A DNA stretch of 64,000 nt from an uncultured Candidatus Saccharibacteria bacterium (lineage in GTDB: Bacteria > Patescibacteriota > Dojkabacteria > J137). The stretch is taken from the NCBI GenBank assembly GCA_964607415.1, contig CAZSKK010000001.1, forward strand, positions 333,469 to 397,468, in the 5' to 3' direction. Shown in pieces: positions 1,047-62,049 of this stretch (the stretch's first letter is position 1; each line of letters begins with the position of its first letter). Under the pieces are notes generated by a model that made no database searches, was not told the DNA's origin, and saw only the letters and a program-made list of their open reading frames with translations. Both the position numbers and the translations under genes were made by a program.

Positions 1047-1344
1047 AAGAAAATTTTAAAAAATTAAAATTTCTCTTAAGGTAAAAGAAGTATTTTGAGT
1101 CGAAGAGGGAAGAAAACGTTAAAGCAATTTTTAAATAAACTTAATTTAGAAATTCAAAAAATTGTTTATCACTTTCTTCTCACTTCGATACTCTTTAATC
1201 TTTTCCTTAAGAGTTTGTTGATTATAGTATAGCCAGCCATGTCTGGCAATAACTAATTACTAAACTCAAATTACTAATAGGACTCCTATTTTAAATTAGT
1301 TATTCAATAGTAATATTAGTCAATATTATCATTTGATCTTTTCT

Positions 1345-4563: not shown

Positions 4564-5091
4564 TTAGTCCATTTTATCCAGTTCTTGGGAAGTATACAAC
4601 TCTGAAGGATCTTTAATGTATGAAGTAAACAAAATTCCATCAAGATGATCTATTTCGTGTTGAAGAAGATGCGAAAAATAACCATCAGCTTTTATTACTT
4701 TTTTATCTCCTTTTGAATTCTGATATTCGACTGTAACTCTTCTAGGCCTTTCAACTTGTCCAAAAAGATTTCCACTATTTATGCTTAAACATCCTTCCCA
4801 ATAAATTGACTTTGCGTCACTTTTTTTCACAATTACAGGATTAATCATTACCTCCCATACATCTGTTCCATCAAAGTCCGGCTTATTTTCAAGATCTAAT
4901 CTTTTAACGATAGTTAATCTTTTTAAAACACCAACTTGATTTGCAGCTAAACCTGCAGAAAAATCCTCGCCTTTTTTAAGAGTATCTAACATTTCTGAAA
5001 TTAATTGCTTGAGTTCAGGATCAGAAAAATCTGTAATTTTTTCTGCTTTTTGTGTAAGGGATGGAAACCCAATTTGTTTTATTTGTAGCAT
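4564..5091 (-). CDS. def: Peptide deformylase
   Basis: 175 aa with the motifs GLAANQVG, EGCLSI and HEIDHLDG (GxGxAAxQ / EGCLS / HExxH). Confidence 0.85.
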   Translation of the reverse strand: MLQIKQIGFPSLTQKAEKITDFSDPELKQLISEMLDTLKKGEDFSAGLAANQVGVLKRLTIVKRLDLENKPDFDGTDVWEVMINPVIVKKSDAKSIYWEGCLSINSGNLFGQVERPRRVTVEYQNSKGDKKVIKADGYFSHLLQHEIDHLDGILFTSYIKDPSELYTSQELDKMD

Positions 5092-5352
5092 AACGCGATT
5101 ATATCATAGAATAGTTATAGTGTTTACGTGTTAACGAGTTAGAGAGCTAACTGATTAGATTATTAAAACTCAAAACAAGAATCTCCTAACTTTGATATAA
5201 TTCAGAATGACATCAGGGGTCAGAGACCTGAAGTTAGTGGCAAGATATCATAAGTAAGAATTTAAAGTTAATTCGTTTTGGTATGCGATTTCTGGATTCT
5301 AAATGTTTAGAATTTCCAATTTAGTATTTCGAATTTATCATTAATTTTTTCT

Positions 5353-6681
5353 ATGTTCATTTGTAGCAACTGTCAAAAAGAATTTTCTAAATGGAGTGGT
5401 CAATGTCCAAACTGTGGACAGTGGAATACACTAAATGAAGTTGATCCTTCGACTACGCTCAGGATGACAAAAACAAAATCGTCCAAAGCTTCCCGAAGCT
5501 CACGGCTCGAAGCTCGTAGCTCTCAGCAGCCAGTTAGACTTATTGATTTAGATAAAAAAGACGAAAAAGTAAGCTACAAACAAATAGAGCTCAAGACTGG
5601 TATCAAGGAATTTGATAATACAATTGGTGGAAGAATAATTTCTGGTCAAGTAATCTTGTTTGCTGGAAGCCCTGGCGTTGGTAAAAGCACTTTATCGTTA
5701 CAGATTACAGAAAGTTTTTCAAATCAAGGTTTAAAGATTCTATACATTGCAGGCGAAGAATCTCCAAGCCAAATAAAACACAGATCTGATCGATTAAAAC
5801 AAAAGCAAACTAATGTACTGTTTTACCCTGAGACAAACATAATCTCCATTCAAAACTATATTGCATCTCATTCAAAAGATATTGATTTAATTGTTGTGGA
5901 TTCAATTCAAACACTTTATTCACCGGATTTACCAAGTACTAGTGGATCCATTTCTCAAATTAGCGAATGCGCCGACAAGATTATAAGCTTAGCAAAAGGT
6001 TTTAGTATTCCTGCATTTATTATTGGTCATATTACAAAATCTGGTGAAATTGCTGGACCAAAAATTTTAGAACACATGGTTGACACAGTTTTATATTTTG
6101 AAGGTGATAAGCGTAGTGAATTAAGAATTCTTAAAGTAGAAAAAAATAGATACGGACCAACTGACGAAGCTGGGATTTTTAAAATGGCTGAAGGAGGCTT
6201 ATCAGAAGTTAAAGATACAAAAGAGCTTTTTGATCCAAGTAAAGAAGATGCTCCTGGATCTGTCTACTGTATGAGTTTAGAAGGTAACAGGCCAATAGTT
6301 GTGGAAGTTCAAGCACTTGCCACAAAAACATATTTTACAAACCCAAGAAGAACTTCTTCAGGTTTTGATTTAAATAGACTTTACATTCTCCTTGCAATTT
6401 TAGATAAAAAACTAAAACTAAAAACTTACGAATATGATGTTTATGTAAATATTACAGGAGGGATCAAAATTGTTGATCCTGGATTGGATTTAGCAGTCAT
6501 TAAAGCAATAGTTTCTTCAATTAAAAACGTAGTTGTCCCAAAAACTGAAGTATATTTTGGTGAAGTAGGTTTAACAGGTGAAGTTAGAAAAGTGATGTTT
6601 GAAGAAAAGCGAACAAAAGAATCTGAGAGAATGGGTTTTAAAAAGATAACTAATTCGAAAAATTTGAAAAGAATTAGTTAG
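5353..6681 (+). CDS. radA: DNA repair protein RadA/Sms
   Basis: N-terminal zinc finger CSNCQ...CPNCGQW, a RecA-like ATPase (GSPGVGKSTLSLQ) and a Lon-like C-terminal domain. An in-frame low-complexity insert (DPSTTLRMTKTKSSKASRSSRLEARSSQQP) is encoded by a GC-rich repeat. Confidence 0.85.
   Translation: MFICSNCQKEFSKWSGQCPNCGQWNTLNEVDPSTTLRMTKTKSSKASRSSRLEARSSQQPVRLIDLDKKDEKVSYKQIELKTGIKEFDNTIGGRIISGQVILFAGSPGVGKSTLSLQITESFSNQGLKILYIAGEESPSQIKHRSDRLKQKQTNVLFYPETNIISIQNYIASHSKDIDLIVVDSIQTLYSPDLPSTSGSISQISECADKIISLAKGFSIPAFIIGHITKSGEIAGPKILEHMVDTVLYFEGDKRSELRILKVEKNRYGPTDEAGIFKMAEGGLSEVKDTKELFDPSKEDAPGSVYCMSLEGNRPIVVEVQALATKTYFTNPRRTSSGFDLNRLYILLAILDKKLKLKTYEYDVYVNITGGIKIVDPGLDLAVIKAIVSSIKNVVVPKTEVYFGEVGLTGEVRKVMFEEKRTKESERMGFKKITNSKNLKRIS
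5447..5535. repeat. GC-rich mosaic repeat element inserted in-frame in radA
   Basis: cgactacgctcaggatgacaaaaac...cccgaagctcacggctcgaagctcgtagctctcagcagcc. Its modules are shared with 2857..2894 (cgaagctcacagctcgaaactcg), 36399..36445 (agctcgaaactcgtagct) and 3301..3420 (gctcaggatgac). Confidence 0.5.
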
Positions 6682-6797
6682 AAGCAGGAATCCTGGAGAC
6701 AAATGATACTTTCTTACACTTTTACTTCTGGATAACTATCTTCAAATTTGGATCGTGCTTCGAGTTTAGAATTTTAAATCAAAACACAACTATTTAA

Positions 6798-7454
6798 TCA
6801 CATTCTCTCTTTGTAGTGCTTCATTTCACCATCTGTAATAATCAGATATTCAAAAAATCCTAGCGAAGAATGTCCTAAATCTATAAATTGTTTTTCAGGT
6901 GTGAATTGATTTAAATGTGAATGACCACAAACTAAAATTTCATTTGGCTTTAAATTTGCTTGTGCCCAAGTTACCATTTCATCATTCATTTTCTGATACA
7001 GCTTTAAATATCTTTCTTTAAAAATCAAAATCAAAAAATTAATAGGATAGCTTGCAAGCCTGCTTAAAAACTTGTATTTATCAACAATCTTATGAATGAA
7101 ATTGAATTTTCCTACCTGCTGATGACCATGAGTAATATATAAAACTTTTCCATCTTTCAGTTCTATTTTATGTACATAAGTTTGAATATTAGAGAAGAGC
7201 GCAACTCTTTCATCTGTAAATTCCTCCTCGTCATGGTTACCAAAAATATAAATGGTATTTTTAGATTTTAATAAAGGGAAAAGTCTACTCCATTTTGAGT
7301 TAATAAAGTCATCAAATGAAATAAAGTCGTCATCCCAAAGATCTCCGTTTATAATAACTTTATCTACTGAGTTAATTAAATCCGCTAGTTTTTGAAATCG
7401 AGATTCGTTAAAACGTTTTTTTAAGTGTGTGTCTGAAATTATTAGTGTTTTCAT
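6798..7454 (-). CDS. Calcineurin-like metallophosphoesterase
   Basis: ISDTHL, INGDLWDD, GNHD and CGHSHL metallophosphatase motifs. Confidence 0.65.
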   Translation of the reverse strand: MKTLIISDTHLKKRFNESRFQKLADLINSVDKVIINGDLWDDDFISFDDFINSKWSRLFPLLKSKNTIYIFGNHDEEEFTDERVALFSNIQTYVHKIELKDGKVLYITHGHQQVGKFNFIHKIVDKYKFLSRLASYPINFLILIFKERYLKLYQKMNDEMVTWAQANLKPNEILVCGHSHLNQFTPEKQFIDLGHSSLGFFEYLIITDGEMKHYKERM

Positions 7455-7624: not shown

Positions 7625-9997
7625 CTATTCCCACTGCCAATTTTTTATTTCCGGCATGTCATCACCGTTTTCAATAATATAATTTCTATGATCCCTAAGT
7701 TTATTTTGCATCATGTAAATGATGTCGTTTTTAATTTCGGCAATCTTTGTATTTTGTTTACTAGCAGCTTCTACAGCCTCGATTACTACATGAAACCTTG
7801 ATGTACCGTTCAAAACTTGCATATCAAATGGCGTTGTTGTTGTACCTTCTTCAATATAGCCTATAACTTTCATTCTGTTTGCGATAGGGTGTCCCCAAGT
7901 TAAAAGTTTTATGGCTTCAGGATAGCCATGGAAATTAAATACAATAGGTTTGTCATTCGTAAAGAAAAAGCCCATATCAGTTTCAGAAATTGAAGTGTAC
8001 TTTTTGTCACCAAGCCCTATTCTGGATAATTCATTGACATTAACATATCTAACCTTTAGTTCCGGAACATATTTTTTTATCAATGTTATTGCGGCCAGTG
8101 TTTCTGTAGTTTGATAATCTCCACTCGAAGCCAAAACTACATCGGGATTGTCCACGTCTGTAGATGCCCAATCCCACACAGAAATTCCTCGTTTAACATG
8201 CTCTTTAGCTTCATCAATATTAAGCCACTGTGGCATTTCTCGTTTATCTGAAATTATTAAATTGACGGAGTTTTTAGATTTCAAACTCTCCTCCATTACA
8301 TACAAAAGCGTATTTGTATCCGAAGGAAAGTAAATGTTAACTGAATCCGAATACTTTGATAAAAGGGTATTTATTAACGCTGGGTTCTGATGTGTGAACC
8401 CATTATGTTCCTGTCTCCAAATGGTGCTTGTTGCAATATAATTCATTGACGGTAAGGGTTTTCGCCATGAAAACTTACTGGACTGCTTTATATATTTAAT
8501 ATATTGCTCTATTTGACTTGTTATTATGCTTAAAAATGCCTCATACGAAACCAAAACTCCATGTCTACCAGTCAAACTGTAACCTTGCATCCAGGATTGT
8601 AAGGTATGTTCACTAAGAATCTCCAAAATTAAACCTTTCTCGTTGATATGAGTATCAATTGATCTAACAGGCCAAATATATTTTCTAGATGTTACTTTAA
8701 ACAAAGCTTCTAGTTTATTTGATTCTGATTCGTCTGGCGAGAAAATTCTAAAATTTTTGCTTTCTTTATTTAAACTTATCAGATCTGAAAAATATTCACT
8801 TATTTCGGCCATCTCTGAAGATTTGTTTTTACCTCTTTGAGTCTCATCAAATTGTATTCCATGTTTTTTTAAATCTGGAAGAATCAAAGCTTTGCTAATT
8901 TCACCACCAAAAGCATGTTTATTCTTGCCCATTTTTCGCTCATCCTTTACAACTAGATGAAGTACTTCGTTTTTAGGAACTTTAGTGACAGGTTCCAAAA
9001 GTTCATCTATTCTATAACTTCTTAGCCATCTTTCTAAGGCCTTTAATTGTTGTGCATCGTTTTTAGGGTCTTTAATTGGAATTCCATGAGAATAATTAAA
9101 ATCTTCCAGCCTAAGCAAGCTTACTTCTTCAGGACACGTCCAACCTTTTTTGGTTTTTAGAATAATCACAGGCCACTTTGGTTTGTCAATTCCATAACTT
9201 GACCATTTAGATTTGATATCCTGAATTGAATGGAAAGATTTTATTAAAGCTTGTAAAAAATCAATGTAAATATCTATGGATGTATATTGATCTACCCATA
9301 AAGGTTCATAGCCTAAACCTTTAAAATAGTTTTCAAGTTCTTCATGAGACATTGTTCCCATTAAAGTAGGGCCCGAAATTCTGTAACTATTAAGATGAAG
9401 GATTGGCAAAACTGCTCCATCTGTTTGAGGATTTAAAAATTTGTTAAATTGCCAACTTGCTGCTAACGGGCCGGTTTCTGCTTCGCCATCACCTACCACA
9501 CAAGTAACAATCAAATCAGGATTATCTAAAGCAGCTCCAAATGCCAAACCTAAAGAGTAACCCAGTTCACCACCTTCGTGAATTGTGCCTGGAAGTCCTG
9601 GATAAGTATGACTTGGAAATCCATTTGGCCAGCTAAATTCTTTTATCAAATTTTCCATTCCTTCTTTAGAAAGTGTAAATCTAGGATAATATTCACCTAG
9701 AGTTTCTTCTAAAAGCAAGCTTGCAAGTACTGCAGGAGCCCCATGACCTGGTCCAATTATCGGCAAAATGTTAGCATTGTATCTGCTTATAAGATAATTT
9801 AGCCCGCCGTAAACAAAATTTAATCCTGGAACTGTACCCCAATGTCCAAGAATTCTATCTTTTATGTGTTCGGGCTTCAGTTCATCTTCTAGAAAATAAT
9901 TATCTTTTAGATACAACATCGCAGAGCTTAAATAGTTTGTAAGCCTGTGATATTGTTTAAACCATTTAATTGTGTATTGAATATCAGAATCCAGCAT
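7625..9997 (-). CDS. xfp: Xylulose-5-phosphate / fructose-6-phosphate phosphoketolase
   Basis: 790 aa with the phosphoketolase signature GHWGTVPGLNFVYG...GPGHGAPA and a TPP-enzyme fold of the right length. Confidence 0.8.
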   Translation of the reverse strand: MLDSDIQYTIKWFKQYHRLTNYLSSAMLYLKDNYFLEDELKPEHIKDRILGHWGTVPGLNFVYGGLNYLISRYNANILPIIGPGHGAPAVLASLLLEETLGEYYPRFTLSKEGMENLIKEFSWPNGFPSHTYPGLPGTIHEGGELGYSLGLAFGAALDNPDLIVTCVVGDGEAETGPLAASWQFNKFLNPQTDGAVLPILHLNSYRISGPTLMGTMSHEELENYFKGLGYEPLWVDQYTSIDIYIDFLQALIKSFHSIQDIKSKWSSYGIDKPKWPVIILKTKKGWTCPEEVSLLRLEDFNYSHGIPIKDPKNDAQQLKALERWLRSYRIDELLEPVTKVPKNEVLHLVVKDERKMGKNKHAFGGEISKALILPDLKKHGIQFDETQRGKNKSSEMAEISEYFSDLISLNKESKNFRIFSPDESESNKLEALFKVTSRKYIWPVRSIDTHINEKGLILEILSEHTLQSWMQGYSLTGRHGVLVSYEAFLSIITSQIEQYIKYIKQSSKFSWRKPLPSMNYIATSTIWRQEHNGFTHQNPALINTLLSKYSDSVNIYFPSDTNTLLYVMEESLKSKNSVNLIISDKREMPQWLNIDEAKEHVKRGISVWDWASTDVDNPDVVLASSGDYQTTETLAAITLIKKYVPELKVRYVNVNELSRIGLGDKKYTSISETDMGFFFTNDKPIVFNFHGYPEAIKLLTWGHPIANRMKVIGYIEEGTTTTPFDMQVLNGTSRFHVVIEAVEAASKQNTKIAEIKNDIIYMMQNKLRDHRNYIIENGDDMPEIKNWQWE

Positions 9998-10055
9998 ATG
10001 CGAGTACTACACTCTAAAATAACATTATACACGCTTTAAATTAAGCTAGTTACTT

Positions 10056-11102
10056 TCACTTTACCACTTCTACCCATTTCTTCCAAACCAATTTTGGTGT
10101 TCCTTCATGATTTTTTAAGCCAATGGAATCAAACAACTCAAAACCTGTTGAAGCCGTACCATCAGACCACTGCACAACGTCGTTAACAAATATCCAATTT
10201 ATATATTCGAATTGATCAGGGGCCGATTTAAAGGTTAAAAGCCAATCTAAATATTGTACTTGCTCCTCTTCAGATCCAACAAAGCCTTGATTATTTAGAC
10301 TCTCAAGTTTTCCTCCGAATCTTGTTTTTGCAGGCCATCCTGTCTCTGTTATTGCAATTTTTGCCTCAGAATAATTTTTTAGCAGGTCAAAATAATCCGA
10401 CGGAATTTGATCGGGATTCTGATAATCAAAGTATGGATATGTTGTAATACCTATCAGATCTAATTTTTTAAATTTTGAAATTAATACAAATAAATCCGAT
10501 CTTTCATCTTTTTTACCCAAAAGGTATCCATCGCCTTTTAAATGTTCGTACTGAAAAACTGTATAAATTTTCACATCTGGAAAGCTTTCCTTTATTTCAG
10601 AATAAGCGTCGTTGTACAGATTAACAAAGCTATCAAATTGATTTGAATATTTCACATAAAGCATATCAACCTCATTGCCAATTGCAAAGTATTTAATGTT
10701 TTTATTTTGTGAAAGAAGTTGTTTAGATTTTGCTATGTACTGTTCTTTTGAATTTACCCATTCTGCTGGGTCCTGAATACCTAATACAAGTTCAATATCT
10801 TTATTAGTTTGCCTGCTTGCTGTGTCCAAAACTTTAGTATCCTTCCAATCAACATGAACCCCATAAACTTGAGTATAGCTTTTAATATCAGCCCAAAAAT
10901 TCTGAATTTCTGTCACATTTGAGTTTGGAAAGTTGGAAGGGGTATAGCCTGAAATTCCATATAATGGTTTTTCTTTTAATTCTTCAGCTGAATTTTCAAT
11001 TTTATTATTTTCTCGATTCGCTATAGCTAAAAGGAGTACAGAAAAAACTATCAGACAAGCAATAAGCAAAAGAAAGGCTATTAGAAATTTTTTTAATTTC
11101 AT
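10056..11102 (-). CDS. Secreted/membrane-anchored glycoside hydrolase, GH17-like (beta-1,3-glucanase-type TIM barrel)
   Basis: N-terminal signal/TM. Catalytic motifs FAIGNEVD (acid/base) and IAITETGWPAK (nucleophile) match GH17. Confidence 0.5.
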   Translation of the reverse strand: MKLKKFLIAFLLLIACLIVFSVLLLAIANRENNKIENSAEELKEKPLYGISGYTPSNFPNSNVTEIQNFWADIKSYTQVYGVHVDWKDTKVLDTASRQTNKDIELVLGIQDPAEWVNSKEQYIAKSKQLLSQNKNIKYFAIGNEVDMLYVKYSNQFDSFVNLYNDAYSEIKESFPDVKIYTVFQYEHLKGDGYLLGKKDERSDLFVLISKFKKLDLIGITTYPYFDYQNPDQIPSDYFDLLKNYSEAKIAITETGWPAKTRFGGKLESLNNQGFVGSEEEQVQYLDWLLTFKSAPDQFEYINWIFVNDVVQWSDGTASTGFELFDSIGLKNHEGTPKLVWKKWVEVVK

Positions 11103-11123
11103 GCATTAATTTATAACTTTAAA

Positions 11124-12266
11124 TTAAACTGCATTTGCAACTGCTTTAGCTACCCTTTTGTCGAATGGATCTGGAATAATTAGATCTTCTGTAGGGTTTT
11201 CAACTAGTGAAGCAATTGCTTTGGCAGCATTTAACTTTGTATCAGTAGTTACTTTTTTTAGGTTTTTATCCAGTAATCCTCTGAAAATTCCAGGAAAGCC
11301 TAGCACGTTATTTACCTGATTTGGATAATCGGACCTCCCTGTAGCAACAATTCTTGCACCTGCCTGCATAGCATCTTCCGGTAAAATTTCAGGATCCGGA
11401 TTTGCCATTGCAAAGATCACGGAATCTTTATTCATCTTTCTTACCATATCTTTGGTTAAGGCTCCTGCAACACTTAAACCTATAAAGATTTGAGCCTCTT
11501 TTATAGCATCTTCTAAAGTACCCGTAAGATTTTGTTTATTAGTAAAATTTAAAAGTAATTTTTTATATTTATTTAAATCGTTTCTATTCTTAGAAATAAT
11601 TCCAGTAGAATCACAAACTATCATGTTTGAAAATCCATAATCTCTTAGCAAGCTTGCTACAGCAGTTGCAGCAGCACCTGCGCCATTTATTACAACTCTG
11701 GAATTTTTCAAATCCTTACCTAGCACCTTAGCCGAATTAATAATTCCAGCTAAAACTACAATTGCAGTCCCATGCTGATCATCGTGAAAAACAGGAATAT
11801 CAAGAATTTCTTGTAATCTTTCTTCAATTTCAAAACACCTTGGTGCCGATATGTCTTCTAGATTTATTCCAGAAATAGACGGTGCTATATTGGTAATTGT
11901 GTTTATAATTTCTTCAGTATCTTGCGTTGCCAGCACAATAGGAATTGCATCAACACCACCAAATTCTTTTAATAAAAGGCATTTACCTTCCATAACAGGA
12001 AGCGCTGCTTCTGGACCAATATTTCCTAATCCTAGAACTGCTGATCCATCAGAAATTACTGCTACAAGATTTTTTCTCCAGGTTAGTTCTTTAACCCTTG
12101 ACTTATCAGCCTTAATTTCTAAACATGGTCCTGCAACTCCGGGACTATACGCCAATGATAATTCAATTTTATTGGTTACTTTAATTTTAGGTACAATCTG
12201 TAATTTTCCCCCATTATCCTTGTGCATTTTAATTGATTCGCTTTTATAATCCATATTTAGATGCAA
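11124..12266 (-). CDS. NAD(P)-dependent malic enzyme (small type)
   Basis: LAYSPGVAGPCLEI, SDGSAVLGLGNIGPEAALPVMEGKCLLLKEFGGVDA and the dinucleotide-binding motif VINGAGAAATAV. Confidence 0.8.
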   Translation of the reverse strand: MHLNMDYKSESIKMHKDNGGKLQIVPKIKVTNKIELSLAYSPGVAGPCLEIKADKSRVKELTWRKNLVAVISDGSAVLGLGNIGPEAALPVMEGKCLLLKEFGGVDAIPIVLATQDTEEIINTITNIAPSISGINLEDISAPRCFEIEERLQEILDIPVFHDDQHGTAIVVLAGIINSAKVLGKDLKNSRVVINGAGAAATAVASLLRDYGFSNMIVCDSTGIISKNRNDLNKYKKLLLNFTNKQNLTGTLEDAIKEAQIFIGLSVAGALTKDMVRKMNKDSVIFAMANPDPEILPEDAMQAGARIVATGRSDYPNQVNNVLGFPGIFRGLLDKNLKKVTTDTKLNAAKAIASLVENPTEDLIIPDPFDKRVAKAVANAV

Positions 12267-24218: not shown

Positions 24219-25928
24219 ATGATGCAAGCAGAAGAAACACCACCAAAGCTACCTCCTCTTCCAGATAATTACGAACTTACTATAACTGACCCTGAAAAAA
24301 CAGGTATTAGACTTTTTCGACTTGCAGATAAGCAAACCGGTATTGTAACAACCTTTATAGAGTTTAATAAAGATTTTGATATTCATGCAGCAATTGCATG
24401 GGCTGGAGCCCGAACTTCAAGAACTAATGATAGTTATGAAAGTATTTACGCTGAAATTTATGAAGCTTCTAAAGCAGGAAGATACCAAGCTGGTGAAAAA
24501 CTAATGAAAGTTTTCTTGAATTATGGACACGCCTCTGTTGCAGATATGTCACCTATTATGATTGGAATTGAAAATATTCCAATGCTTGAAGCTTTCTTTA
24601 TTTTTGATCATACAAGTGTAAACGCAGGACAAGAGCTTTCCACAAGATATGTAGAAATCTCAGATTTAGGTGTACCTGAAATTCAAGATTTGCTTGATTT
24701 GGAAAGCTTAGAAGGTGAACAAAAAGAGAAAATCCAAAAATTATGGGGAAAAATCCAAGATAATTGCTCAAGGCAATACACCAAGTGGACTTCACTTATT
24801 AAACCACGTATTGAGAAATTTATTGAAGAAGGGGGCAAAAAACCTTCAAAGGATACTGTAAATGCTAGAACTCTTGACATTGCAAGAATGTGGATTCCTG
24901 TAGGAGCAAGTACTTCTATGATCTCACTTTCTTCAACAAGAGATTGGGTAAACATGATAAAACAACTACGCGAAAATGAAAGCCCCATTTCAGATAGTAT
25001 TGCTGACCAAATCCTGGTTACTTTAAACTTAAAAAATTATAGCGAAGGCGAATCATTACAAGCCGATATAGGCAGATTAACAAAATACCACGAAGGGACC
25101 TTTACCGTTAATCAAAATTTAAAGAATCTGCAGGAACTAATTTTAACAATTTCTGAATTTTCAGATTTAGTTGATCAACCTATTTCACACGAACCTAAAT
25201 CGTCACCCAATAAAGCAAAAATATTGAACCTTGGCACAAATTATAGCCCAGGAACTTTACTTGCAGCAGAATATATTTCAGTGCTATTTCCTAATATTGA
25301 TGAGGAAGCAATATTAGAAAAACTGGTAGCTCTTGATAATAACTTAAAAGGTGAGATAGGTAGAATTATACTAGATGGACATAACCACCATGACTTACTA
25401 AAAAATGCTGCAGATGTAAGGGGCACTCTAGTTGTTGTAGAGACTGCTCTTGCATACTTAAGAGATTTAAATAGGCATAGAGCTCTAGGTAGATTAATGC
25501 ACTTACTTGAAACAAAAAATACTGACGCAATTGTCTACCAAGGATTCAACCAAAACTTTGCACTTAATAACTCAGATTATTTAAAAGATCTCTCTCCTAT
25601 GTGGGAAGAGGACATGGCCCAACATTACGAAATGATTTTTGAATTTTATGAGGTTCTCAAAGAAAGTCTTGGGGATAATTTAGATAGTAAAATTCTCAAC
25701 TATATTCTCCCATTAGGTCACCAGGTAAAAGCTCACTTTAGCGGGCCACTTTTGCAATTTGACTACATGTTAAGTTTAAGAATTTCGCTAGGGGGTGATT
25801 TTGGTTATAGGGATACTGCTCATCAAATTTTAGAGTTGTTTAGGCAAGATCCTTTTTTAATAAGTATGTTAGAAAAAATTGAGAAACCTGATCCTAATGA
25901 CTTGACTCAAGTTGTAGGAAGAAGCTAA
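24219..25928 (+). CDS. ThyX-like (flavin-dependent thymidylate synthase fold) protein with a large central insertion; function uncertain
   Basis: The N-terminal part (YGHASVADMSPIMIGIENIPMLEAFFIFDHTSVNAGQELSTRY) and C-terminal part (ILPLGHQVKAHFSGPLLQFDYMLSLRIS) align by eye with ThyX blocks (GHETPFEH...[40 protein letters not shown]). The RHR residues are replaced by DHT. Confidence 0.4.
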   Translation: MMQAEETPPKLPPLPDNYELTITDPEKTGIRLFRLADKQTGIVTTFIEFNKDFDIHAAIAWAGARTSRTNDSYESIYAEIYEASKAGRYQAGEKLMKVFLNYGHASVADMSPIMIGIENIPMLEAFFIFDHTSVNAGQELSTRYVEISDLGVPEIQDLLDLESLEGEQKEKIQKLWGKIQDNCSRQYTKWTSLIKPRIEKFIEEGGKKPSKDTVNARTLDIARMWIPVGASTSMISLSSTRDWVNMIKQLRENESPISDSIADQILVTLNLKNYSEGESLQADIGRLTKYHEGTFTVNQNLKNLQELILTISEFSDLVDQPISHEPKSSPNKAKILNLGTNYSPGTLLAAEYISVLFPNIDEEAILEKLVALDNNLKGEIGRIILDGHNHHDLLKNAADVRGTLVVVETALAYLRDLNRHRALGRLMHLLETKNTDAIVYQGFNQNFALNNSDYLKDLSPMWEEDMAQHYEMIFEFYEVLKESLGDNLDSKILNYILPLGHQVKAHFSGPLLQFDYMLSLRISLGGDFGYRDTAHQILELFRQDPFLISMLEKIEKPDPNDLTQVVGRS

Positions 25929-53667: not shown

Positions 53668-55464
53668 TCACACTGAAAAATCACCTAGAATTGGATTAAC
53701 CGCATCAACTAAATCTTTAGCCTTCATTTCAATTGAGCAGGTTCTTTTGCCACAGTTAAAGTCAACTGTTTCGTTATTTAAAATCTTTTCATCAAAATAC
53801 GTTTTTAAGCCTAAAAGATTCCCTAGTGGAGGAACTCCACCAACTTGAATTCCAAATTTTTCTAAAATCACTTCTGGTTTTTCAAATTCAATTGCTTCTC
53901 CCAAAATTTCTTTTGCTTTAGTCATATCTAGTTTTAAGTGAGCTGGCATTACAAACATAAAGTTCTCGCTAGATTTCTTGCCTTTAACAATTAGAGCCTT
54001 AGCTCCTTCTTCAATTTTGGTTCCTCTAACTCTACTTGCATCTTCACTTGTTACAACTTCTTCATGTTCATCGTATTCATATTTAAAACCAAATTTATCT
54101 AAATGTTTTTTTATTTGCTCTGTAACATCAATATTTTTGTTGAATTTTCTTTTGATTGGAACACCAGCAATTCGCTTTGTGTCTGATGGGAACAAAACTG
54201 TCTCTCTGATATTTTCTAAACCTAGAAGCTGTAGAGTAAATCTTTCAAGGCCAATCCCAAACCCTCCATGTTTTGGCATACCGTATTTGAATATTGATAG
54301 ATAATCCGTAAAATCTTCCGGATTTAAACCCTTCATTTTTAAACTTTCTACCAAATCATCGTATTTATCAATTCTTTGGCCTCCACTTGAAACTTCAGTT
54401 CCATTACAAATTAAATCCCCGTAGTTACAAACCAGTGGATTTTCTTCATTTGGTTTTGCATAAAATGCACATTTTGTTCTTGGGAAGTGAGTAACAAAAA
54501 TAAAATCAATTCCAAATTTTTCTTTAGCATATTTACATATAAATCTTTCCGCATCAGGCGAAAGATCATTTTCATTTCTTTCATCTTTGCCTGTTGCTTC
54601 AAAATATAGTTCTAGTGCTTCTTTTAATGTAACTTTTGGAATTGTAATCTCATCTTTAAGAGTTGCAAAATTAGGAAAGAGTTTAATTTCTTCAGCACAT
54701 TTTTCCAGAACTTTTTTATACATTGCTTTAATTACTTTTTCCTCCCACTCCAAAACTTCATCAAATTTTTCAATAAATCCAACTTCAAATTCAAACTGAG
54801 TTGCTTCTGTAATATGTCTTCTGGTATTTGATTTTTCAGCTCTAAAGCACTTCAAAGTTCCAAAAACTCTTTCAAAAACACCAACCATCATTTGTTTATA
54901 TAGTTGGTTTGATTGAGCTAATTTTGCTTCAACACCAAAGTAATCGACAGTAAAAAGTTCTGCCCCACCCTCACTTGAAGCTCCAATAATGGCAGGTCCC
55001 ATAAACTCTGTAAATCCTTGAGATATAAGATATTCTCTATATCCTTCTAAAATTGCAGCTTGAATCTTAAAAACTGCACTGATTTTTTCATTCCTTAAAG
55101 TTAGCGGTCTATAATCTAAAATTGTATCAATGTGAGCATTAATTTCTGGTTTATTAACTTCAACAGGCCAAGGTTCCGTTATAGCATTTTCAATTGTAAT
55201 TTCAGGATTAGTGATTTCAAAACCAAGCTCTGCTTGTGAATTTTCTTTTACAATTCCAAAAATTTTTATAATTGATCCAGGCTGAAGTGTACTTAAATTT
55301 TTTATATCATCCGCATTTTCAACAAAAACCTGAACCAAACCGCCTCTATCTCTTAAAATTAAAAAAGCAATTTTTCCAAGTTTCCTAAAGTTATGTAACC
55401 AACCTTTTATATAGACTTTTTCGCCCACTTTTTCTTGGCACTCAGTAGATATTATTCGTTCCAC
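53668..55464 (-). CDS. aspS: Archaeal/eukaryal-type aspartyl-tRNA synthetase fused to a C-terminal YbaK/ProX-like aminoacyl-tRNA deacylase domain
   Basis: 598 aa. N-terminal OB fold. Motif 2 is FRAEKSNTRRHITEATQFEFEVGF. Motif 3 is SSGGQRIDKYDDLVESLKMKGLNPEDFTDYLSIFKYGMPKHGGFGIGLER...LFPSD (compare archaeal AspRS GMPPHGGFGLG...FPRD). An extra ~150-aa C-terminal domain has ALIVKGKKS..FMFVMPAHLKLDMTKAKEILG, FGIQVGGVPPLGN and FNCGKRTCSIEMKAKDL, matching the YbaK blocks (YKTLLV.., GYLVGGISPLG, VSGGKRGLDIEL). Confidence 0.75.
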   Translation of the reverse strand: MERIISTECQEKVGEKVYIKGWLHNFRKLGKIAFLILRDRGGLVQVFVENADDIKNLSTLQPGSIIKIFGIVKENSQAELGFEITNPEITIENAITEPWPVEVNKPEINAHIDTILDYRPLTLRNEKISAVFKIQAAILEGYREYLISQGFTEFMGPAIIGASSEGGAELFTVDYFGVEAKLAQSNQLYKQMMVGVFERVFGTLKCFRAEKSNTRRHITEATQFEFEVGFIEKFDEVLEWEEKVIKAMYKKVLEKCAEEIKLFPNFATLKDEITIPKVTLKEALELYFEATGKDERNENDLSPDAERFICKYAKEKFGIDFIFVTHFPRTKCAFYAKPNEENPLVCNYGDLICNGTEVSSGGQRIDKYDDLVESLKMKGLNPEDFTDYLSIFKYGMPKHGGFGIGLERFTLQLLGLENIRETVLFPSDTKRIAGVPIKRKFNKNIDVTEQIKKHLDKFGFKYEYDEHEEVVTSEDASRVRGTKIEEGAKALIVKGKKSSENFMFVMPAHLKLDMTKAKEILGEAIEFEKPEVILEKFGIQVGGVPPLGNLLGLKTYFDEKILNNETVDFNCGKRTCSIEMKAKDLVDAVNPILGDFSV

Positions 55465-57518: not shown

Positions 57519-57906
57519 ACTGAAAGTATTGATAATAACTAGAATGTAGTATTAGTATAGAATATAGACAAATTTAAAGCAATTTGAGGTCAATCTGAAG
57601 TATAAAGCTAGAAATCTTTAGCTTTAGGCATTGGGTTTTAGTTTTGTTGCTTGGGGCCCCTTGCAACAGTTCAACAAGATTGTATTTTTTATGGTTCGCG
57701 TACATCTTCAACCTTGTTTTGAACTTACAAATGTTAACAATTACAAAAAATCTGGTCAATGAAATTGTGAAGAGAATATGATATGTTTAAACTAGATTGG
57801 CTATATTAGCATTATATTGTAATAAGCCGTCATCATGAATTCATTTCAGGATCTTGCGTTAATCCAAAAAATGCCATACCAAGTTTAGCATGGTGTCTTT
57901 CTTTTG

Positions 57907-59931
57907 TTAGTACTTTCTCAAACTTTCAATACTTGTTTGTTCTGGAGCTACTTTTCTTTCAACTTGAACTGGTTTTTGATTTGTATACAAAGGCATTCCA
58001 AAACTAAATACACTGCCTTCCCCGACTTTACTTTGAACATCTAAAATTCCTTCCATTATCCTTATAAGATTGAATGAAACGTAAAGTCCTAGACCGGTAC
58101 CACCTGGTCTCACAATTGATGCTGGATCGCCTGGATCTCCTGTATACTGCTTTGCACGAAAGAACTTTCTTCCAAGCTTTTTTAAATCCTGCTCATCAAT
58201 ACCGATCCCAGAATCTCTAACATGCACCCAACCAAAGTTATCCTTAACTTCAACAGATATTTCTACAAAACCTTTAGGAGTGTATTTAATTGCGTTTCCA
58301 ATAAAGTTATCTGCAACTTCTTGAATTCTTGTTCTATCGCAGTAAACAAATACGTCCTTTTCTGGCTTTTGATACTTAATTTCAAGGCCTCGCTTAATTG
58401 CTTGACCTTTTAAAGCTTCCAACGAATCATTAATAACATCCAAAAGATCAACCTTTTCAATAGCCAATTGAAAGCCTTTGCTGTCTGCTTTTGTTGCAGA
58501 AAGAAGTGTTTCAATAAGGTTAATTTCTCGTTTTGCAGATTCAATTGCTGCATCTACATATTTTTGTTGTTTATCTAAAGGAATAGAACCTTCCTTTTTT
58601 AAGTGAAGCTCCATCATGCCTAAAGCATTTCTAACAATAGACATTGGAGTTCGAAGTTCATGTCCCATAATGTCAATCATATCCCGTTCACGCTCGCGGG
58701 CAATTTGAAGTTCGCTTAGTGCTATCTCCAGATTATTTTTAACTCTTTCAACTTCTGTAAATAATCTTGCATTTTCTAGTGCAATACCAATTTGAGTTGT
58801 ATATGTTTGCAATAGTTGCTTTTGATTTTCTTCCAATTCTTCAGACCCTTTATCCTTTATCAGATAACCTATTGTTCCTACAATTCTGCCCCTAGAAAAT
58901 ACTGGATACACTGCTATGGATTTTACGTTTATAATTCTAAGAAGTGGTGTTATCAATGTTTTTGGAATTGGTGGTGAAAAAGCATTTATAAGGTCATTAG
59001 AAAACTGCGGTTCCCCTGAAAGGATAGCTTTCACAGTAGGCGTTCCAACTGCAGCTGGGTCTTTTACAAAAGTTTCATATTTTTTAAAGTCTCCCAGTAA
59101 ATTTCTTGCAGCATCTGAAATTCTGTTTCTTGTTAATGCTTTGACTGTAATTGAACCTTCTAAAGAGTCGTAATCAGTAAGAATACCACCTATCATCATT
59201 TGATCTTGTGGCAAAGAATCAACAGCAGTTTGACTTACTACATCAGGATCCAATGATTTACTGATTTGAGAAGTTAGGTTGTAGAGGGAGGCAAGTTCAT
59301 TTGCCTTCAAACGTATAGTATGGAGCTGATTATTTTTTTCTTCGAAAGATTGAGCATTGAAAATGGCGATTGCAACTTGAGATGAATAGATTTTTAATAA
59401 ATCAAAGTCGGAACTAAAAGATTCATCTTTTAGCTTAGTAAACATTATTACACCTAAACAGTCAGTTCTGTATATTAATGGTAATGACACAATTCTTTTT
59501 GTTCTGCTTAGATTCTGCAAAATGTTTGCAACATTAGACGTTATTGTAGGAACAATAAAATCTGCAAGATTCTCAGATTCCTTAATTTCTTTGTCTAAAA
59601 ATGTTCTAACAATAAAGTTGGATTTTTCTGCAATAGAAACATTAAGACTATCAAATGATCCACCAATAAGCCTTTTCGTAAGCAAGTTATTAATAGCCTT
59701 ATTAGTAAATGTCTTACTATAAATTTTTTGCGCTTTATCATTATATAAAAAAACTACCGCACTATCATACTTCAGTTTATTTACAATTATATCCACAGAC
59801 TTTTGTAATATTTCGTCAAGGCTTAAGCTAGTACCTATCAAATTGCCAACGTCAATAACAGCAGCGTACTTAGACTGAACAATCTGGGTGTCCATTTGAC
59901 TATTTGTTATTGTTTTTCTAGAACCAAACAT
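57907..59931 (-). CDS. Cytoplasmic sensor histidine kinase with tandem GAF-like domains
   Basis: 674 aa. H-box MGHELRTPMSIV and HATPase_c (VRDSGIGIDEQ, GGTGLGLYV). No TM segments. Confidence 0.8.
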   Translation of the reverse strand: MFGSRKTITNSQMDTQIVQSKYAAVIDVGNLIGTSLSLDEILQKSVDIIVNKLKYDSAVVFLYNDKAQKIYSKTFTNKAINNLLTKRLIGGSFDSLNVSIAEKSNFIVRTFLDKEIKESENLADFIVPTITSNVANILQNLSRTKRIVSLPLIYRTDCLGVIMFTKLKDESFSSDFDLLKIYSSQVAIAIFNAQSFEEKNNQLHTIRLKANELASLYNLTSQISKSLDPDVVSQTAVDSLPQDQMMIGGILTDYDSLEGSITVKALTRNRISDAARNLLGDFKKYETFVKDPAAVGTPTVKAILSGEPQFSNDLINAFSPPIPKTLITPLLRIINVKSIAVYPVFSRGRIVGTIGYLIKDKGSEELEENQKQLLQTYTTQIGIALENARLFTEVERVKNNLEIALSELQIARERERDMIDIMGHELRTPMSIVRNALGMMELHLKKEGSIPLDKQQKYVDAAIESAKREINLIETLLSATKADSKGFQLAIEKVDLLDVINDSLEALKGQAIKRGLEIKYQKPEKDVFVYCDRTRIQEVADNFIGNAIKYTPKGFVEISVEVKDNFGWVHVRDSGIGIDEQDLKKLGRKFFRAKQYTGDPGDPASIVRPGGTGLGLYVSFNLIRIMEGILDVQSKVGEGSVFSFGMPLYTNQKPVQVERKVAPEQTSIESLRKY

Positions 59932-61081
59932 TAATATTACTTCCTTTAACTATAAGAATGAGTTCGCTAAGCAATTTTTGAATATCTCCAGAGAGATTCT
60001 GTTCTAATAACAATAATATATAGAAATTTAGTACATATTCTAATATACTATCAAACTTTTCTATTTCATCAAAACTTTTAAAATCATCAATTATAGTATT
60101 AATGATCTTTTTAAATAAAGTGCATACTGCTTCCTCACCCCGTGTAAAGGTATTTAGATCATTATTGAACTTACCATCAAATACCTCTGAAAAAAGGTTA
60201 GTATCGTTTCTATCTTTATCTTGTTCATAATCAAGCATGTCATCTAGTAACACATTTAATATTCCTACACCTCTAAATGCCATAATCAGATGACTTAAGA
60301 CCTCGTAATTACTTAGCTCATTCAATTCCATATAAACAAATAGTGGAACTAGAAAACTTATGCTATCTCCTAGGAATTGAAACCAAAGCTCATGACTTTT
60401 AACCCAACCAGGAACACTTTTCCAAGATGTATTATCATATTGAAATGTAGTTTCTCTAAGCTTAATTTTTAAGGACTGCTTTTCAGATTCATCCCTAACA
60501 TGGTCAAGAGCTATAAATGTGTAATATTCAGTAAGTCTTTTATCAACAACTTCTAGTGTTTTTGTATCCATCGGTTTCTTGATATTAATAAGGTCTCTAA
60601 ACCTTATCCCTAATTTCTTGTATAAGTCATTCCAACCATTAAGAATCTGGCTTTCAAGTTGAGAATAATTTTTATTAGGGAAAATACTTTGTTGATCACC
60701 ATATAATATATTGCTTTTCATCGCTTCAAAAATGTAGAGTTGGTCATCCATATTACGTAACATTTCAATTTCACTTAGAGTATCCGCAAAGTCTACTTGG
60801 GTAAATTCTAAAATTGCAATTGCCTCTATGGTTTCCCTTTTTAACTTTTTCCCTTTTTTATATTTTTCTAATACGCTTTGAAAGTAGATAAGCGCTGCTA
60901 CAGTATGAAGTTTTTTTAACTGTACTAAATTCAATATATTCTGTTCATCGCCTAGAGCATTACTGGCAAGAGCTTTAGATTTAAGCTCTGCTGTAAATGT
61001 TTCACTTATGAAAATGTCTACCTTATCACTATAGTAGAAGTAGTGTTTGGAGCTAAGAATTTTTTCTAAAGTTTGGTTCAT
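59918..61081 (-). CDS. Hypothetical all-alpha protein (operon partner of the GAF kinase)
   Basis: 387 aa. It overlaps the kinase start by 14 nt and the regulator stop by 4 nt. It contains LLDDMLDYEQDKD; no family recognised. Confidence 0.4.
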   Translation of the reverse strand: MNQTLEKILSSKHYFYYSDKVDIFISETFTAELKSKALASNALGDEQNILNLVQLKKLHTVAALIYFQSVLEKYKKGKKLKRETIEAIAILEFTQVDFADTLSEIEMLRNMDDQLYIFEAMKSNILYGDQQSIFPNKNYSQLESQILNGWNDLYKKLGIRFRDLINIKKPMDTKTLEVVDKRLTEYYTFIALDHVRDESEKQSLKIKLRETTFQYDNTSWKSVPGWVKSHELWFQFLGDSISFLVPLFVYMELNELSNYEVLSHLIMAFRGVGILNVLLDDMLDYEQDKDRNDTNLFSEVFDGKFNNDLNTFTRGEEAVCTLFKKIINTIIDDFKSFDEIEKFDSILEYVLNFYILLLLEQNLSGDIQKLLSELILIVKGSNINVWF

Positions 61082-61839
61082 GTTTTAAGTTTACTAATTG
61101 CTATGGCAACATTTTCTGAAAAAAGTTTTAATGTTTCAAAGTCTGCTTTGAAGTCATCCGTATAAGATTTACCGTAATAAATAGCTCCTATGGATTTATC
61201 ATTTACTACTAACGGGAATGCAATCCCTGTTTTAACTCTTGCAATTCTCTCAAGCACTCGAGCTATATTTTTATTTACCGCAGGAGCTAGAAAATCTTCA
61301 TGTTTATTACTCATTTGATATGTTCTACTTATAATCGCCTTAACCATCAAATTTTTTTCCTCGTTGATCGATACTTTAATCTTTTGAATAGGTTTACCTA
61401 TAATTTTCATAGATAAATCGCTATACCAAGAATTGGTAAATGCTTTTAATACTACGCTATCATCTTCAACTAGAACTATAAAGCTTCCAAGCAAATTTAA
61501 AGTATATGCTATTTCATTTACAGCAACTTGTGCCACCTTCCCAATACTATCATATCTATGAAAAGAATTAATTGTACTAATTATGTTCATAACATATTGT
61601 CTAGTATCAATACCAAAAACTTCTGATGCTTCATTTGCATTTAGTTGCAACATATCAATTATTTTTACGAGAGTTTCCTTCGTTGGGTTCACCTCACCAT
61701 TTTCAATTCTACTAATACTCCCTGGGCTTGCGTCAATTAGGCCTTCCAACTTCATTTGGCTAAGCCCTGCTCTTAAACGGAAGTTGCGGATTTTATTGCC
61801 TAGATCGTAAGTTTTTTGCTGGATTGTGTTGGGTGTCAT
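61078..61839 (-). CDS. XRE-family HTH transcriptional regulator with a C-terminal GAF-like sensor domain
   Basis: The N-terminal HTH is LGNKIRNFRLRAGLSQMKLEGLIDASPGSISRIENGE. The C-terminal ~170 aa are GAF-like. Confidence 0.55.
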   Translation of the reverse strand: MTPNTIQQKTYDLGNKIRNFRLRAGLSQMKLEGLIDASPGSISRIENGEVNPTKETLVKIIDMLQLNANEASEVFGIDTRQYVMNIISTINSFHRYDSIGKVAQVAVNEIAYTLNLLGSFIVLVEDDSVVLKAFTNSWYSDLSMKIIGKPIQKIKVSINEEKNLMVKAIISRTYQMSNKHEDFLAPAVNKNIARVLERIARVKTGIAFPLVVNDKSIGAIYYGKSYTDDFKADFETLKLFSENVAIAISKLKT

Positions 61840-62049
61840 TGTTTGTAAAGATTATATCATTCAATAAATGATAATTACTCGTACTAGATTTTCACCATGG
61901 GTTGGTCTACTTTTAATGAAAAAGTTTTTCATTGGGATTTCATTCGTTATTAGTGATTCGAATTTTGTCATTCCACAAAATGTTTTTGGTAAGTCTACCA
62001 AAAATATTTTGTGGCCGCATTGTATTGCGGTACAAATTTTGAGTGAAAT

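Follow-up and report, generated by a model that had tools for sequence, protein, structure and literature searches.

A divergent terpene-synthase-like protein coupled to GAF-domain sensors in a three-gene operon of an uncultured candidate-phyla bacterium

In a stretch of 64 kb of DNA (64,000 nucleotides; hereafter the window), we examined three overlapping genes on the minus strand, which encode, in this order, an XRE-HTH+GAF protein (253 aa), a 387-aa protein and a GAF-GAF-HisKA-HATPase kinase (674 aa). Our analysis inspired the proposal, which we hold with about equal belief and doubt, that the operon unites an isoprenoid-processing enzyme with cognate GAF sensors that have DNA-binding and phosphorylation outputs, the ligand probably being the product of the enzyme. 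The features of the locus are as follows.

57874..57893, minus strand: terminator-like hairpin with T-run, 14 nt past the kinase stop codon
57907..59931, minus strand: soluble sensor histidine kinase, 674 aa (Pfam)
about 57988-58338, minus strand: HATPase_c of the kinase (Pfam, 75.2 bits)
about 58480-58686, minus strand: HisKA of the kinase, with His424 (Pfam, 36 bits)
about 58747-59319, minus strand: kinase GAF2
about 59332-59886, minus strand: kinase GAF1
59918..61081, minus strand: 387-aa divergent large-terpene-synthase-like (DUF2600/YtpB-like) protein, predicted class I terpene synthase fold (from fold and motifs)
60218-60244, minus strand: motif 2, D280-D-M-L-D284-Y-E-Q-D288
60770-60793, minus strand: motif 1, D97-F-A-D100-T-L-S-E104
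61078..61839, minus strand: XRE-family HTH + GAF1-type GAF protein, 253 aa (Pfam, paralogy)
about 61087-61602, minus strand: GAF1-type GAF of the XRE protein, residues about 80-251 (paralogy to kinase GAF1)
about 61627-61806, minus strand: XRE HTH, residues 12-71 (Pfam)
61851..61873, minus strand: candidate promoter/operator (consensus matches only)
61851-61859, minus strand: candidate extended -10 TGATATAAT, about 11 nt ahead of the XRE-GAF ATG (sequence reading)
61855-61873, minus strand: palindrome TATCATT-N5-AATGATA, overlapping the candidate extended -10 (palindrome listing)
61915..62037, minus strand: leader/intergenic elements upstream of the operon, comprising the next three lines
61915-61933, minus strand: perfect palindrome AATGAAAAA-C-TTTTTCATT, upstream of the XRE-GAF gene
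61973-62014, minus strand: hairpin with 19-nt arms, upstream of the XRE-GAF gene
62017-62037, minus strand: conserved element ATTTGTACCGCAATACAATGC, upstream of the XRE-GAF gene

An earlier note on this DNA had described the three ORFs with overlaps of 4 and 14 nt, and direct reading confirmed both junctions: the XRE-GAF gene and the middle gene share ATGA, and the middle gene and the kinase gene share ATGTTTGGTTCTAG; 8 nt upstream, within the 3' end of the middle gene, lies AGGAAG, a Shine-Dalgarno-like element. All three proteins lack transmembrane segments, and the XRE-GAF/enzyme/kinase trio is kept in other organisms, which supports the picture of a co-translated, cytoplasmic and self-contained ligand-sensing operon. 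The hairpin at 57874..57893 is the only terminator-like site between 57400 and 62700 and the probable end of the operon. On the other side, the elements at 61915..62037 could either regulate this operon or terminate the upstream NUDIX gene. The element at 62017-62037 was the sole one conserved among the XRE-GAF upstream regions compared; it is not operon-specific, because the genome has another copy ahead of greA. An operator common to XRE-GAF promoters was looked for and not found, and an Rfam scan of the 64-kb window returned nothing besides one tRNA.

The middle protein had been described as an unknown helical protein, a description that held for curated families (no match in Pfam or NCBIfam) and failed at the level of fold. 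The protein was assigned to the class I terpene synthase alpha-helical fold, with BalTS as the closest relative, and on its sequence features it is a putative terpene-synthase-fold enzyme and the conserved core of the module. The first Asp-rich motif of large terpene synthases reads DYLDNLxD (PMC7839719). DFADTLSE (97-104) of the window protein lies in register with it, the acidic positions remaining D, D and E; conservation across the family reaches at least 90% at D97 and D100, and motif 1 is degenerate in the relative P0012. The second Asp-rich motif has the form DY(F,L,W)IDxxED; DDMLDYEQD (280-288) lies in register with it, with D for Y and Q for the first residue of 'ED'. It thereby regains a canonical DDxxD, unlike the DUF2600 motif; the ED is present in most relatives and reads Q in the window protein (DYEQD), and D280, D284 and D288 are invariant in the family. 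Mg2+-dependent catalysis is a prediction for the window protein; large terpene synthases convert C25-C35 prenyl diphosphates in this way to beta-curcumene-type terpenes. The idea that the ORF might be a pseudogene could be dismissed, since it is intact and conserved with invariant acidic motifs. The gathering threshold of PF10776 (25 bits) was passed only by the distant relatives P0013 (48.6 bits) and P0015 (28 bits), P0006 (18.9) and P0005 (14.1) scored below it, and the window protein gave no match at E <= 0.1; we therefore place it on a divergent sister branch rather than within the Pfam-defined family. No further copies turned up when 185,579 reference genomes and JGI metagenome contigs were searched with the enzyme alignment (A1). 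Genes for isoprenoid precursor synthesis or polyprenyl synthases were absent from the 64-kb window and the 4.7 kb beyond it.

Pfam agreed with the HTH, GAF, HisKA and HATPase_c domains named in the earlier note, except that one GAF was sub-threshold. The XRE protein carries a Cro/C1-type HTH (HTH_31, 39.8 bits, cut-off 27; HTH_3, 36.9 bits, cut-off 23), and its GAF part matched GAF_2 below the cut-off (22.2 bits), DUF3369 likewise below threshold, and SpoVT_C weakly. In the kinase, both GAF domains, HisKA and HATPase_c scored above their cut-offs, and the catalytic motifs are intact, namely the H-box HELRTP (His424) and the G1 and G2 motifs (DSGIGI, GGTGLGL). By fold and profile the operon thus holds three GAF domains, and the claim of two different GAF sensor modules had to be revised: the GAF of the XRE protein is a paralogue of kinase GAF1, with 29% identity across 154 aa (E 6e-23), and therefore not a different sensor type. 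Kinase GAF2 is of another type than GAF1 and may supply a second input. The XRE-GAF protein is predicted to be a ligand-responsive transcription factor; the XRE+GAF1 combination falls outside every curated family. Orthologues of the protein comprise one in locus L008 (31% identity, full length) and three in the Dojkabacteria locus L018 (35-45%), and a second XRE protein in L008 weakly matched an MmyB-like LBD. The fold search with GAF1 retrieved generic GAF domains, which span many ligand classes, and gave no pointer to the ligand. The idea that a GAF cysteine is covalently prenylated was considered and rejected, the sole recurrent Cys (in CLG) being V or S in several orthologues.

HisKA/HATPase kinases pass phosphate to receiver aspartates, and the reported lack of a nearby receiver was borne out. 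No receiver or Hpt gene was found in the 64-kb window, where 42 of 42 larger ORFs were annotated with Pfam; the best match of a receiver HMM in a six-frame scan of the window had E 0.48, and in the positive control, locus L019, receivers were detected at E 1e-20. The search extended to the 4.7 kb past the window end (L003), where a cognate response regulator might have lain just outside, and to 10-20 kb around four homologous loci (L008, L010, L015 and L018), again with no receiver, so that no adjacent receiver-domain partner was seen at the locus.

We next turned to the relatives of the middle gene. DNA 3' of the enzyme gene could be read in ten members, namely the window, L001, L002, the P0003 contig, L007, L008, L010, L013, L014 and the L015/16/17/20/21 group, and in all ten the gene 3' of the enzyme begins with a GAF/GAF1-type domain. 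This count represents about ten independent lineages, many from short contigs; P0008 and P0009, whose contexts end too early, and P0012, P0014 and P0016 stand outside it. The enzymes with this conserved adjacency are only 17-39% identical, and the downstream GAF matches have BLAST identities of 38-56%, the most distant members still reaching GAF1-profile E values between 1e-51 and 1e-56. The order enzyme to GAF is invariant, and the junction is an overlap of 11-32 nt in five loci and a gap of 1-71 nt in seven lineages. GAF1 is constant, and the output domain attached to it is a kinase, an XRE domain or none: stand-alone GAFs without a kinase occur in L010, L015 and L017, with Saccharibacteria among the carriers, and would suit a binding, carrier or regulatory-subunit role. 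The XRE-GAF paralogue is placed upstream or divergent of the enzyme and is missing from several loci, e.g., L007 and L010. Scans with a GAF1 probe gave 3 + 2 loci, word-index searches with GAF1 gave 1 and 5 matches only, and the nearest named relatives of the operon proteins are in a Dojkabacteria MAG (44-45%) and a Saccharibacteria MAG.

A link to isoprenoids that is independent of the fold assignment was found at the sister loci L018 and L008. In L018, a UbiA prenyltransferase (82 bits) fills the enzyme slot with the identical 4-nt overlap, flanked by XRE-GAF and a GAF-GAF kinase 44% identical to the window kinase. A polyprenyl synthase is encoded upstream in L018, and another lies 1.3 kb from the module in L008; in both, the residue five places before the first DDxxD (position -5) is F or Y and short-chain models give the highest score, so the substrate length may differ from C25-C35. 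Compared with the window kinase, the L018 kinase is about 26% identical in GAF1 and 45% in GAF2, whereas that of the terpene-synthase-bearing L008 is 45.5% identical in GAF1 and 38% in GAF2; kinase GAF1 therefore tracks the enzyme type. The XRE-GAF proteins of the UbiA locus are still GAF1-type (E 5e-44 to 3e-22), which fits a common substrate no less well than a product.

The strict pairing of enzyme and GAF1 leads to a concrete prediction for this orphan class of GAF sensors, whose ligand would be an isoprenoid that the adjacent enzyme produces or consumes. In the proposed mechanism, the soluble, Mg2+-dependent class I fold enzyme would ionise a prenyl diphosphate to give a terpenoid or prenylated metabolite, and this small molecule would be bound by the GAF1 subtype, present in two copies in the operon. 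The product is the most likely ligand and the substrate a less likely one. The copy on the XRE domain would control transcription, probably that of its own operon, and the copy at the kinase N terminus would direct phosphorylation of a response regulator encoded elsewhere, with GAF2 possibly contributing the second input. Ligand identity, GAF1 binding and XRE autoregulation are here predictions drawn from the sequences. A broader idea, which we advance tentatively and judge rather doubtful, is that in Patescibacteria, including Saccharibacteria, a terpenoid from a divergent synthase is sensed by dedicated GAFs and serves as an isoprenoid autoinducer or second messenger.

Several other explanations were weighed against this proposal. 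The most serious of them, though in our judgement unlikely, is homeostasis of the precursor pool, in which the GAF1-type domains would sense a prenyl diphosphate (e.g., FPP or GGPP) or the membrane/lipid-carrier state, and the XRE protein and kinase would tune an enzyme diverting precursor to membrane terpenoids, with no quorum-type signal molecule. Unrelated DUF2600-like and UbiA enzymes in one slot have substrate class as their common factor, the XRE-GAFs are GAF1-type at both kinds of locus, and polyprenyl synthases adjoin the L008 and L018 modules. There is also a precedent in Bacillus, where YtpB stands at the branch point leading to membrane C35 terpenoids and is regulated by envelope stress (bioRxiv 10.1101/2024.01.17.576085). 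However, kinase GAF1 diverges with the enzyme type (about 26% vs 45%) despite an unchanged substrate class, a pool sensor would not need enzyme and GAF to be so tightly coupled, 1:1, at the level of translation, and the stand-alone GAFs of L010 and L015 could not control expression by themselves. That coupling would instead suit a physical complex, in which GAF1 would be an allosteric subunit of the enzyme or a carrier of its hydrophobic product and the kinase would read the catalytic state by contact. The gene overlaps in five loci, the SD-like element inside the window enzyme gene, the unvarying gene order and the output-less GAFs of L010 and Saccharibacteria all point this way; the gapped junctions in seven lineages and the variable placement or loss of the XRE-GAF paralogue argue against it, and we regard such a complex as improbable.

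As to the kinase, the earlier note had suggested that it may act on a non-canonical partner, for which the XRE-GAF protein or the enzyme would be the candidates within the operon. The absence of receiver and Hpt genes from all regions searched and the co-translation of the three genes would accord with it, yet the kinase is a canonical HisKA/HATPase protein with HELRTP, orphan histidine kinases are common, and variants without the kinase (L010, L015, L017) or without XRE-GAF (L007, L010) imply that these two are not obligate partners. The canonical HisKA and the kinase-less variants make it simpler and more likely that the kinase is an orphan whose response regulator is encoded at a distance, and we infer that such a regulator exists; the non-canonical partner finds no support and is very improbable. 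Equally slight is the chance that the neighbourhood is coincidental, the helical protein being a non-catalytic relic and the regulators serving unrelated genes. The window protein does fall under every curated family threshold and motif 1 is degenerate in P0012, but the uniform adjacency among such divergent members, the invariant metal-binding aspartates and the analogous prenyl enzyme (UbiA) in the L018 slot leave this reading strongly disfavoured.

The proposed pairing of an isoprenoid-processing enzyme with cognate GAF sensors turns an "unknown" gene into a testable enzyme candidate and extends the large-terpene-synthase family from Bacillales into ultra-small candidate-phyla bacteria, in which, to our knowledge, terpenoid production is not known. 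The constant pairing of enzyme and GAF suggests a regulatory circuit, so far undescribed, around an isoprenoid small molecule. No isoprenoid-binding GAF was found in the literature searched. An isoprenoid autoinducer or second messenger, if true, would be a signalling chemistry not described for bacteria, and episymbionts could use such a signal for cell-cell or host communication. Kinases are scarce in candidate-phyla bacteria, which keep a mere handful of them (0.289 per 100 genes; PMC10805038); a kinase tied to the enzyme therefore points to an important signal, and a kinase and a transcription factor both devoted to it suggest one central to lifestyle. The stand-alone-GAF version in Saccharibacteria, which have cultivable members, may give experimental access.

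Among known enzymes, the relatives of the window protein are tetraprenyl-beta-curcumene synthase YtpB of B. subtilis, BalTS of B. alcalophilus (PDB 5YO8) and Pfam DUF2600 (PF10776), with only 12-13% identity to YtpB/BalTS. The window family belongs to candidate-phyla bacteria and pairs with GAF sensors, whereas the YtpB/BalTS family belongs to Bacillales and YtpB-type genes pair with ytpA, sqhC or hepST; the prenyl synthases near the sister loci look short-chain, not C35 as for large terpene synthases. An anti-phage defence role was also considered and rejected, PADLOC giving generic HTH matches for the XRE protein only and none for the enzyme or kinase.

Circuits that join a synthase to a cognate sensor include LuxI/LuxR, RpfF/RpfC/RpfG (DSF) and ComQXPA, where an isoprenyl-transferase is encoded beside a histidine kinase. 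The window operon differs from these in its enzyme family and in having cytoplasmic GAF sensors rather than a membrane kinase; unlike the ComA and RpfG systems, it has no adjacent response regulator. A ComQXPA-type system was rejected, since the enzyme is not polyprenyl_synt, the kinase lacks TM segments, no receiver was found at the locus, and the overlapping genes leave no room for a ComX-like peptide gene. DosS/DosT (DevS) of Mycobacterium are likewise soluble GAF-GAF histidine kinases, which bind haem and act on the response regulator DosR; the window kinase has no such regulator close by, and the defining feature of its GAF1 is the tie to a putative isoprenoid enzyme. Like CodY, SpoVT and MmyB-like XRE regulators, the XRE protein joins an HTH to a small-molecule-binding alpha/beta domain, but unlike theirs its GAF is specifically paralogous to GAF1 of the neighbouring kinase. 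In the 2-methylisoborneol synthase operons of actinomycetes and cyanobacteria, genes for cyclic-nucleotide-binding regulators flank the synthase gene; those operons have a canonical class I synthase, a cNMP-binding sensor instead of a GAF and no kinase, and share with the window operon the co-transcription of a terpene synthase, putative in our case, with ligand-binding regulators.

The three genes that the earlier note had described as an overlapping operon were all present, and the domain calls for HTH, GAF, HisKA and HATPase_c agreed with Pfam.

61078-61839, minus strand: XRE-GAF regulator, 253 aa, matching HTH_31/HTH_3 and weakly GAF
59918-61081, minus strand: middle protein, 387 aa
57907-59931, minus strand: kinase, 674 aa, with two GAF domains (GAF1 and GAF2), HisKA and HATPase_c

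The reported overlaps were found as the 4-nt ATGA between the XRE-GAF and middle genes and the 14-nt ATGTTTGGTTCTAG between the middle and kinase genes, the latter preceded by an AGGAAG Shine-Dalgarno-like element within the 3′ end of the middle gene. The overlapping start of the kinase gene is supported by the "MF" N-terminus conserved among orthologous kinases. The kinase carries HELRTP (His424), G1 and G2 motifs, and a terminator-like hairpin lies 14 nt past its stop codon. No membrane segments were found in any of the three proteins.

The middle protein, previously called unknown, indeed had no match in Pfam or NCBIfam, but its motifs, fold and profile now mark it as resembling the large terpene synthases (LTS). 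It is extremely rare, with 4 clusters among 5.8 billion proteins and 16 representatives recovered from 1.84 billion by an exhaustive profile search. The family alignment revealed two invariant acidic motifs, which in the window protein read DFADTLSE (residues 97-104) and DDMLDYEQD (residues 280-288); of their positions, D280, D284 and D288 are invariant and D97, D100 and D281 are at least 90% conserved, although the sequences are just 17-35% identical. The LTS family is defined by two motifs, DYLDNLxD and DY(F,L,W)IDxxED (PMC7839719). The 15-sequence family profile matched the Bacillus LTS BalTS (PDB 5YO8) at E 3e-6, aligning VDfaDslgE on CDYLDNLCD and LLDDlvDieeDe on LLDYFIDQEED. The AlphaFold2 model (pLDDT 78.8, pTM 0.80) agreed in a Foldseek search (E 1.6e-5, prob 1.0). 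Furthermore, two distant members, P0013 (48.6 bits) and P0015 (28 bits), passed the Pfam threshold of DUF2600, and two others matched it below threshold. The middle protein therefore belongs, as a divergent and apparently functional member, to the LTS-like class I terpene synthase superfamily, and is not the pseudogene for which the earlier note had allowed. Related to LTS/DUF2600 by fold and motifs yet below the Pfam threshold, it is best filed as a divergent sister branch and not as a curated member.

The surroundings of ten family members could be read, the window itself included; this is a small lineage sample with many members on short contigs. In 10 of 10 the immediate 3′ gene begins with a GAF of the GAF1 subtype.

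Genes immediately downstream of middle-protein family members
L001 (P0002): 52% identical to GAF1
L002 (P0004): 56% identical to GAF1
P0003 contig: 670-aa GAF/HisKA/HATPase kinase
L007 (P0005): 48% identical to GAF1
L008 (P0006): 653-aa kinase, full-length identity 44%
L010 (P0007): stand-alone 184-aa GAF, 38% identical
L013 (P0013): GAF1 profile, E 1.6e-56
L014 (P0015): GAF1 profile, E 7e-55
L015, L016, L017, L020 and L021 (Saccharibacteria-type, P0011): stand-alone 222-226-aa GAF, E 6e-53

In five loci the enzyme and GAF1 genes overlap, by 11-32 nt; in the others 1-71 nt separate them. Loci differ in their output domain, either a kinase or nothing, and in having or lacking the XRE-GAF gene. 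Enzyme and GAF1 are thus the constant core of the module.

The Saccharibacteria-type variant always has, after the enzyme and stand-alone GAF genes, a gene for a 322-325-aa protein (L015:7854-8822, L016, L020:1419-2387, L021:4834-5811). This protein has a membrane anchor at its N terminus, an extracellular region containing Cys, an extended Ser-rich stretch and, at its C terminus, a TM segment, and is a candidate third component of the variant. The opposite strand carries a DedA/VTT gene. Near the L008 module, a second XRE regulator (435-1202, minus strand) has an HTH 52% identical to that of the window XRE-GAF and a weak MmyB-like ligand-binding domain match in place of the GAF, and so reads as the same DNA-binding head joined to a different putative sensor domain.

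Scanning named genomes with a GAF1 probe uncovered a sister locus, L018, in a Candidatus Dojkabacteria MAG, with the following layout.

Gene 1: polyprenyl synthase
Genes 2-4: XRE-GAF, in a tandem array of three with 35-45% identity to that of the window
Gene 5: prenyltransferase of the UbiA family (82 bits), sharing a 4-nt overlap with the last XRE-GAF gene
Gene 6: GAF-GAF-HisKA-HATPase kinase, 44% identical to that of the window

The 4-nt overlap mirrors that of the terpene-synthase-like gene in the window. An unrelated enzyme, also prenyl-diphosphate-using, therefore fills the same slot; UbiA-type proteins can be terpene cyclases themselves. Identities to the window kinase were about 26% for GAF1 and 45% for GAF2 in L018, versus 45.5% and 38% in L008, where the slot holds a terpene-synthase-like gene; judged by these values, the kinase GAF1 tracks the enzyme type. 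L008 likewise encodes a polyprenyl synthase, 1.3 kb away from the module. In both this enzyme and its L018 counterpart, the residue at position −5 of the first DDxxD is F or Y, and the best-scoring models are short-chain ones (IdsA/GGPP/FPP); under the classical chain-length rule this suggests C15-C20/25 substrates. The three XRE-GAF paralogues of L018, together with another histidine kinase of 775 aa that contains GAF, is divergently oriented and adjoins the polyprenyl synthase, represent an expanded sensor set around one prenyl-enzyme locus (8964-11303 and 5063-7390).

Candidate regulatory DNA was located upstream of the operon, partly between the NUDIX and XRE-GAF genes.

About 11 nt before the XRE-GAF ATG: candidate extended −10, TGATATAAT, overlapped by the palindrome TATCATT-N5-AATGATA
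61915-61933: perfect 9+9 palindrome, AATGAAAAA-C-TTTTTCATT, between NUDIX and XRE-GAF
61973-62014: hairpin with 19-nt arms (95% complementary, 4-nt loop), between NUDIX and XRE-GAF
62017-62037, minus strand: conserved palindromic element, ATTTGTAYY-N2-AATACAATGC (core TTGTAY-N4-ATACAA), also at L003:155-171 and L008:1300-1316

The last element precedes the XRE-GAF start by about 180 nt; the expected number of occurrences of its 21-mer per window, allowing up to 3 mismatches, is 0.03. Its copy upstream of greA in L003, from the same genome, is a perfect 16-bp palindrome, TTGTATTGCAATACAA, with TATAAT 20 nt downstream, and that in the distantly related L008 adjoins an XRE gene. It could serve as operator for this HTH subtype or for a global regulator, and the hairpin and 9+9 palindrome could terminate NUDIX transcription, form a leader structure or act as operators.

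The claim that no receiver lies nearby held: annotation of essentially every window ORF of at least 100 aa revealed no Response_reg, Hpt or isoprenoid genes, and scanning all six frames with a receiver HMM, which was built from six textbook receivers, yielded nothing better than E 0.48. In L019, an unrelated locus used as control, the same HMM picked up receivers at E 1e-20 and 1e-14, and it matched nothing in L003, L008, L010, L015 or L018. The earlier note had left room for a regulator just outside the window; L003 reaches 4.7 kb beyond its end and encodes ABC-F, an unknown gene, a 2′,5′-RNA-ligase-like gene, APH, GNAT, NUDIX, NTPase and GreA, so that no such regulator adjoins the window on that side.

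The window genes are ordinary chromosomal ones (DnaE, MutS, DnaK/GrpE/HrcA, RelA/SpoT, ProRS, AspRS, phosphoketolase, ABC transporters). AspRS (53668-55464, minus strand) has a C-terminal YbaK/ProX-type tRNA_edit domain, according to the Pfam families of an identical gene, a fusion unusual for AspRS. A 569-aa protein (24219-25928, plus strand) matches ThyX (Thy1) at residues 60-250 only. At over twice the length normal for ThyX, it may be a fusion or duplication. Phosphoketolase (XFP) and malic enzyme lie at 7625-9997 and 11124-12266, both on the minus strand. The source genome looks small and reduced (33% GC, on a 585-kb contig), and every protein tested was a singleton at 90% identity; the lineage is therefore very poorly sampled.

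From the anatomy and associations observed, we infer activity, ligand and outputs for the operon as an isoprenoid-centred sensing circuit, the best-supported reading, to which we give roughly even chances. The enzyme would turn its prenyl diphosphate substrate into a terpenoid or prenylated metabolite, which GAF1-type domains would bind; GAF occupancy would then be relayed by XRE-GAF to transcription, probably of its own operon, and by the kinase to phosphorylation of a regulator encoded elsewhere. Alternatively, the GAFs might sense the substrate or precursor pool in membrane or lipid-carrier homeostasis. The XRE GAFs remain GAF1-type in the UbiA locus, and the Bacillus LTS YtpB supplies membrane C35 terpenoids under envelope stress, both of which favour this rather unlikely possibility.

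A direct complex of enzyme and GAF1, in keeping with the translational coupling of their genes and the existence of stand-alone GAFs, is doubtful. The proposal in the earlier note that the kinase phosphorylates a non-canonical target is very improbable, and we consider a merely coincidental neighbourhood equally hard to credit. 

The middle gene thus stands at the heart of a conserved and very rare module of candidate-phyla bacteria, in which an isoprenoid enzyme, as assigned from sequence and model, is coupled to a dedicated family of GAF sensors. The finding is of greater interest than the earlier note had described.

PADLOC gave no defence-system match, and a full-text literature search returned no paper joining GAF domains, terpene synthases and kinases and no description of such enzymes in Patescibacteria. 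The kinase shares the architecture of DosS/DosT, but has no DosR counterpart in the regions scanned. The operon resembles LuxI/LuxR, RpfF/RpfC and ComQXPA in its synthase-plus-sensor logic while being a member of none.
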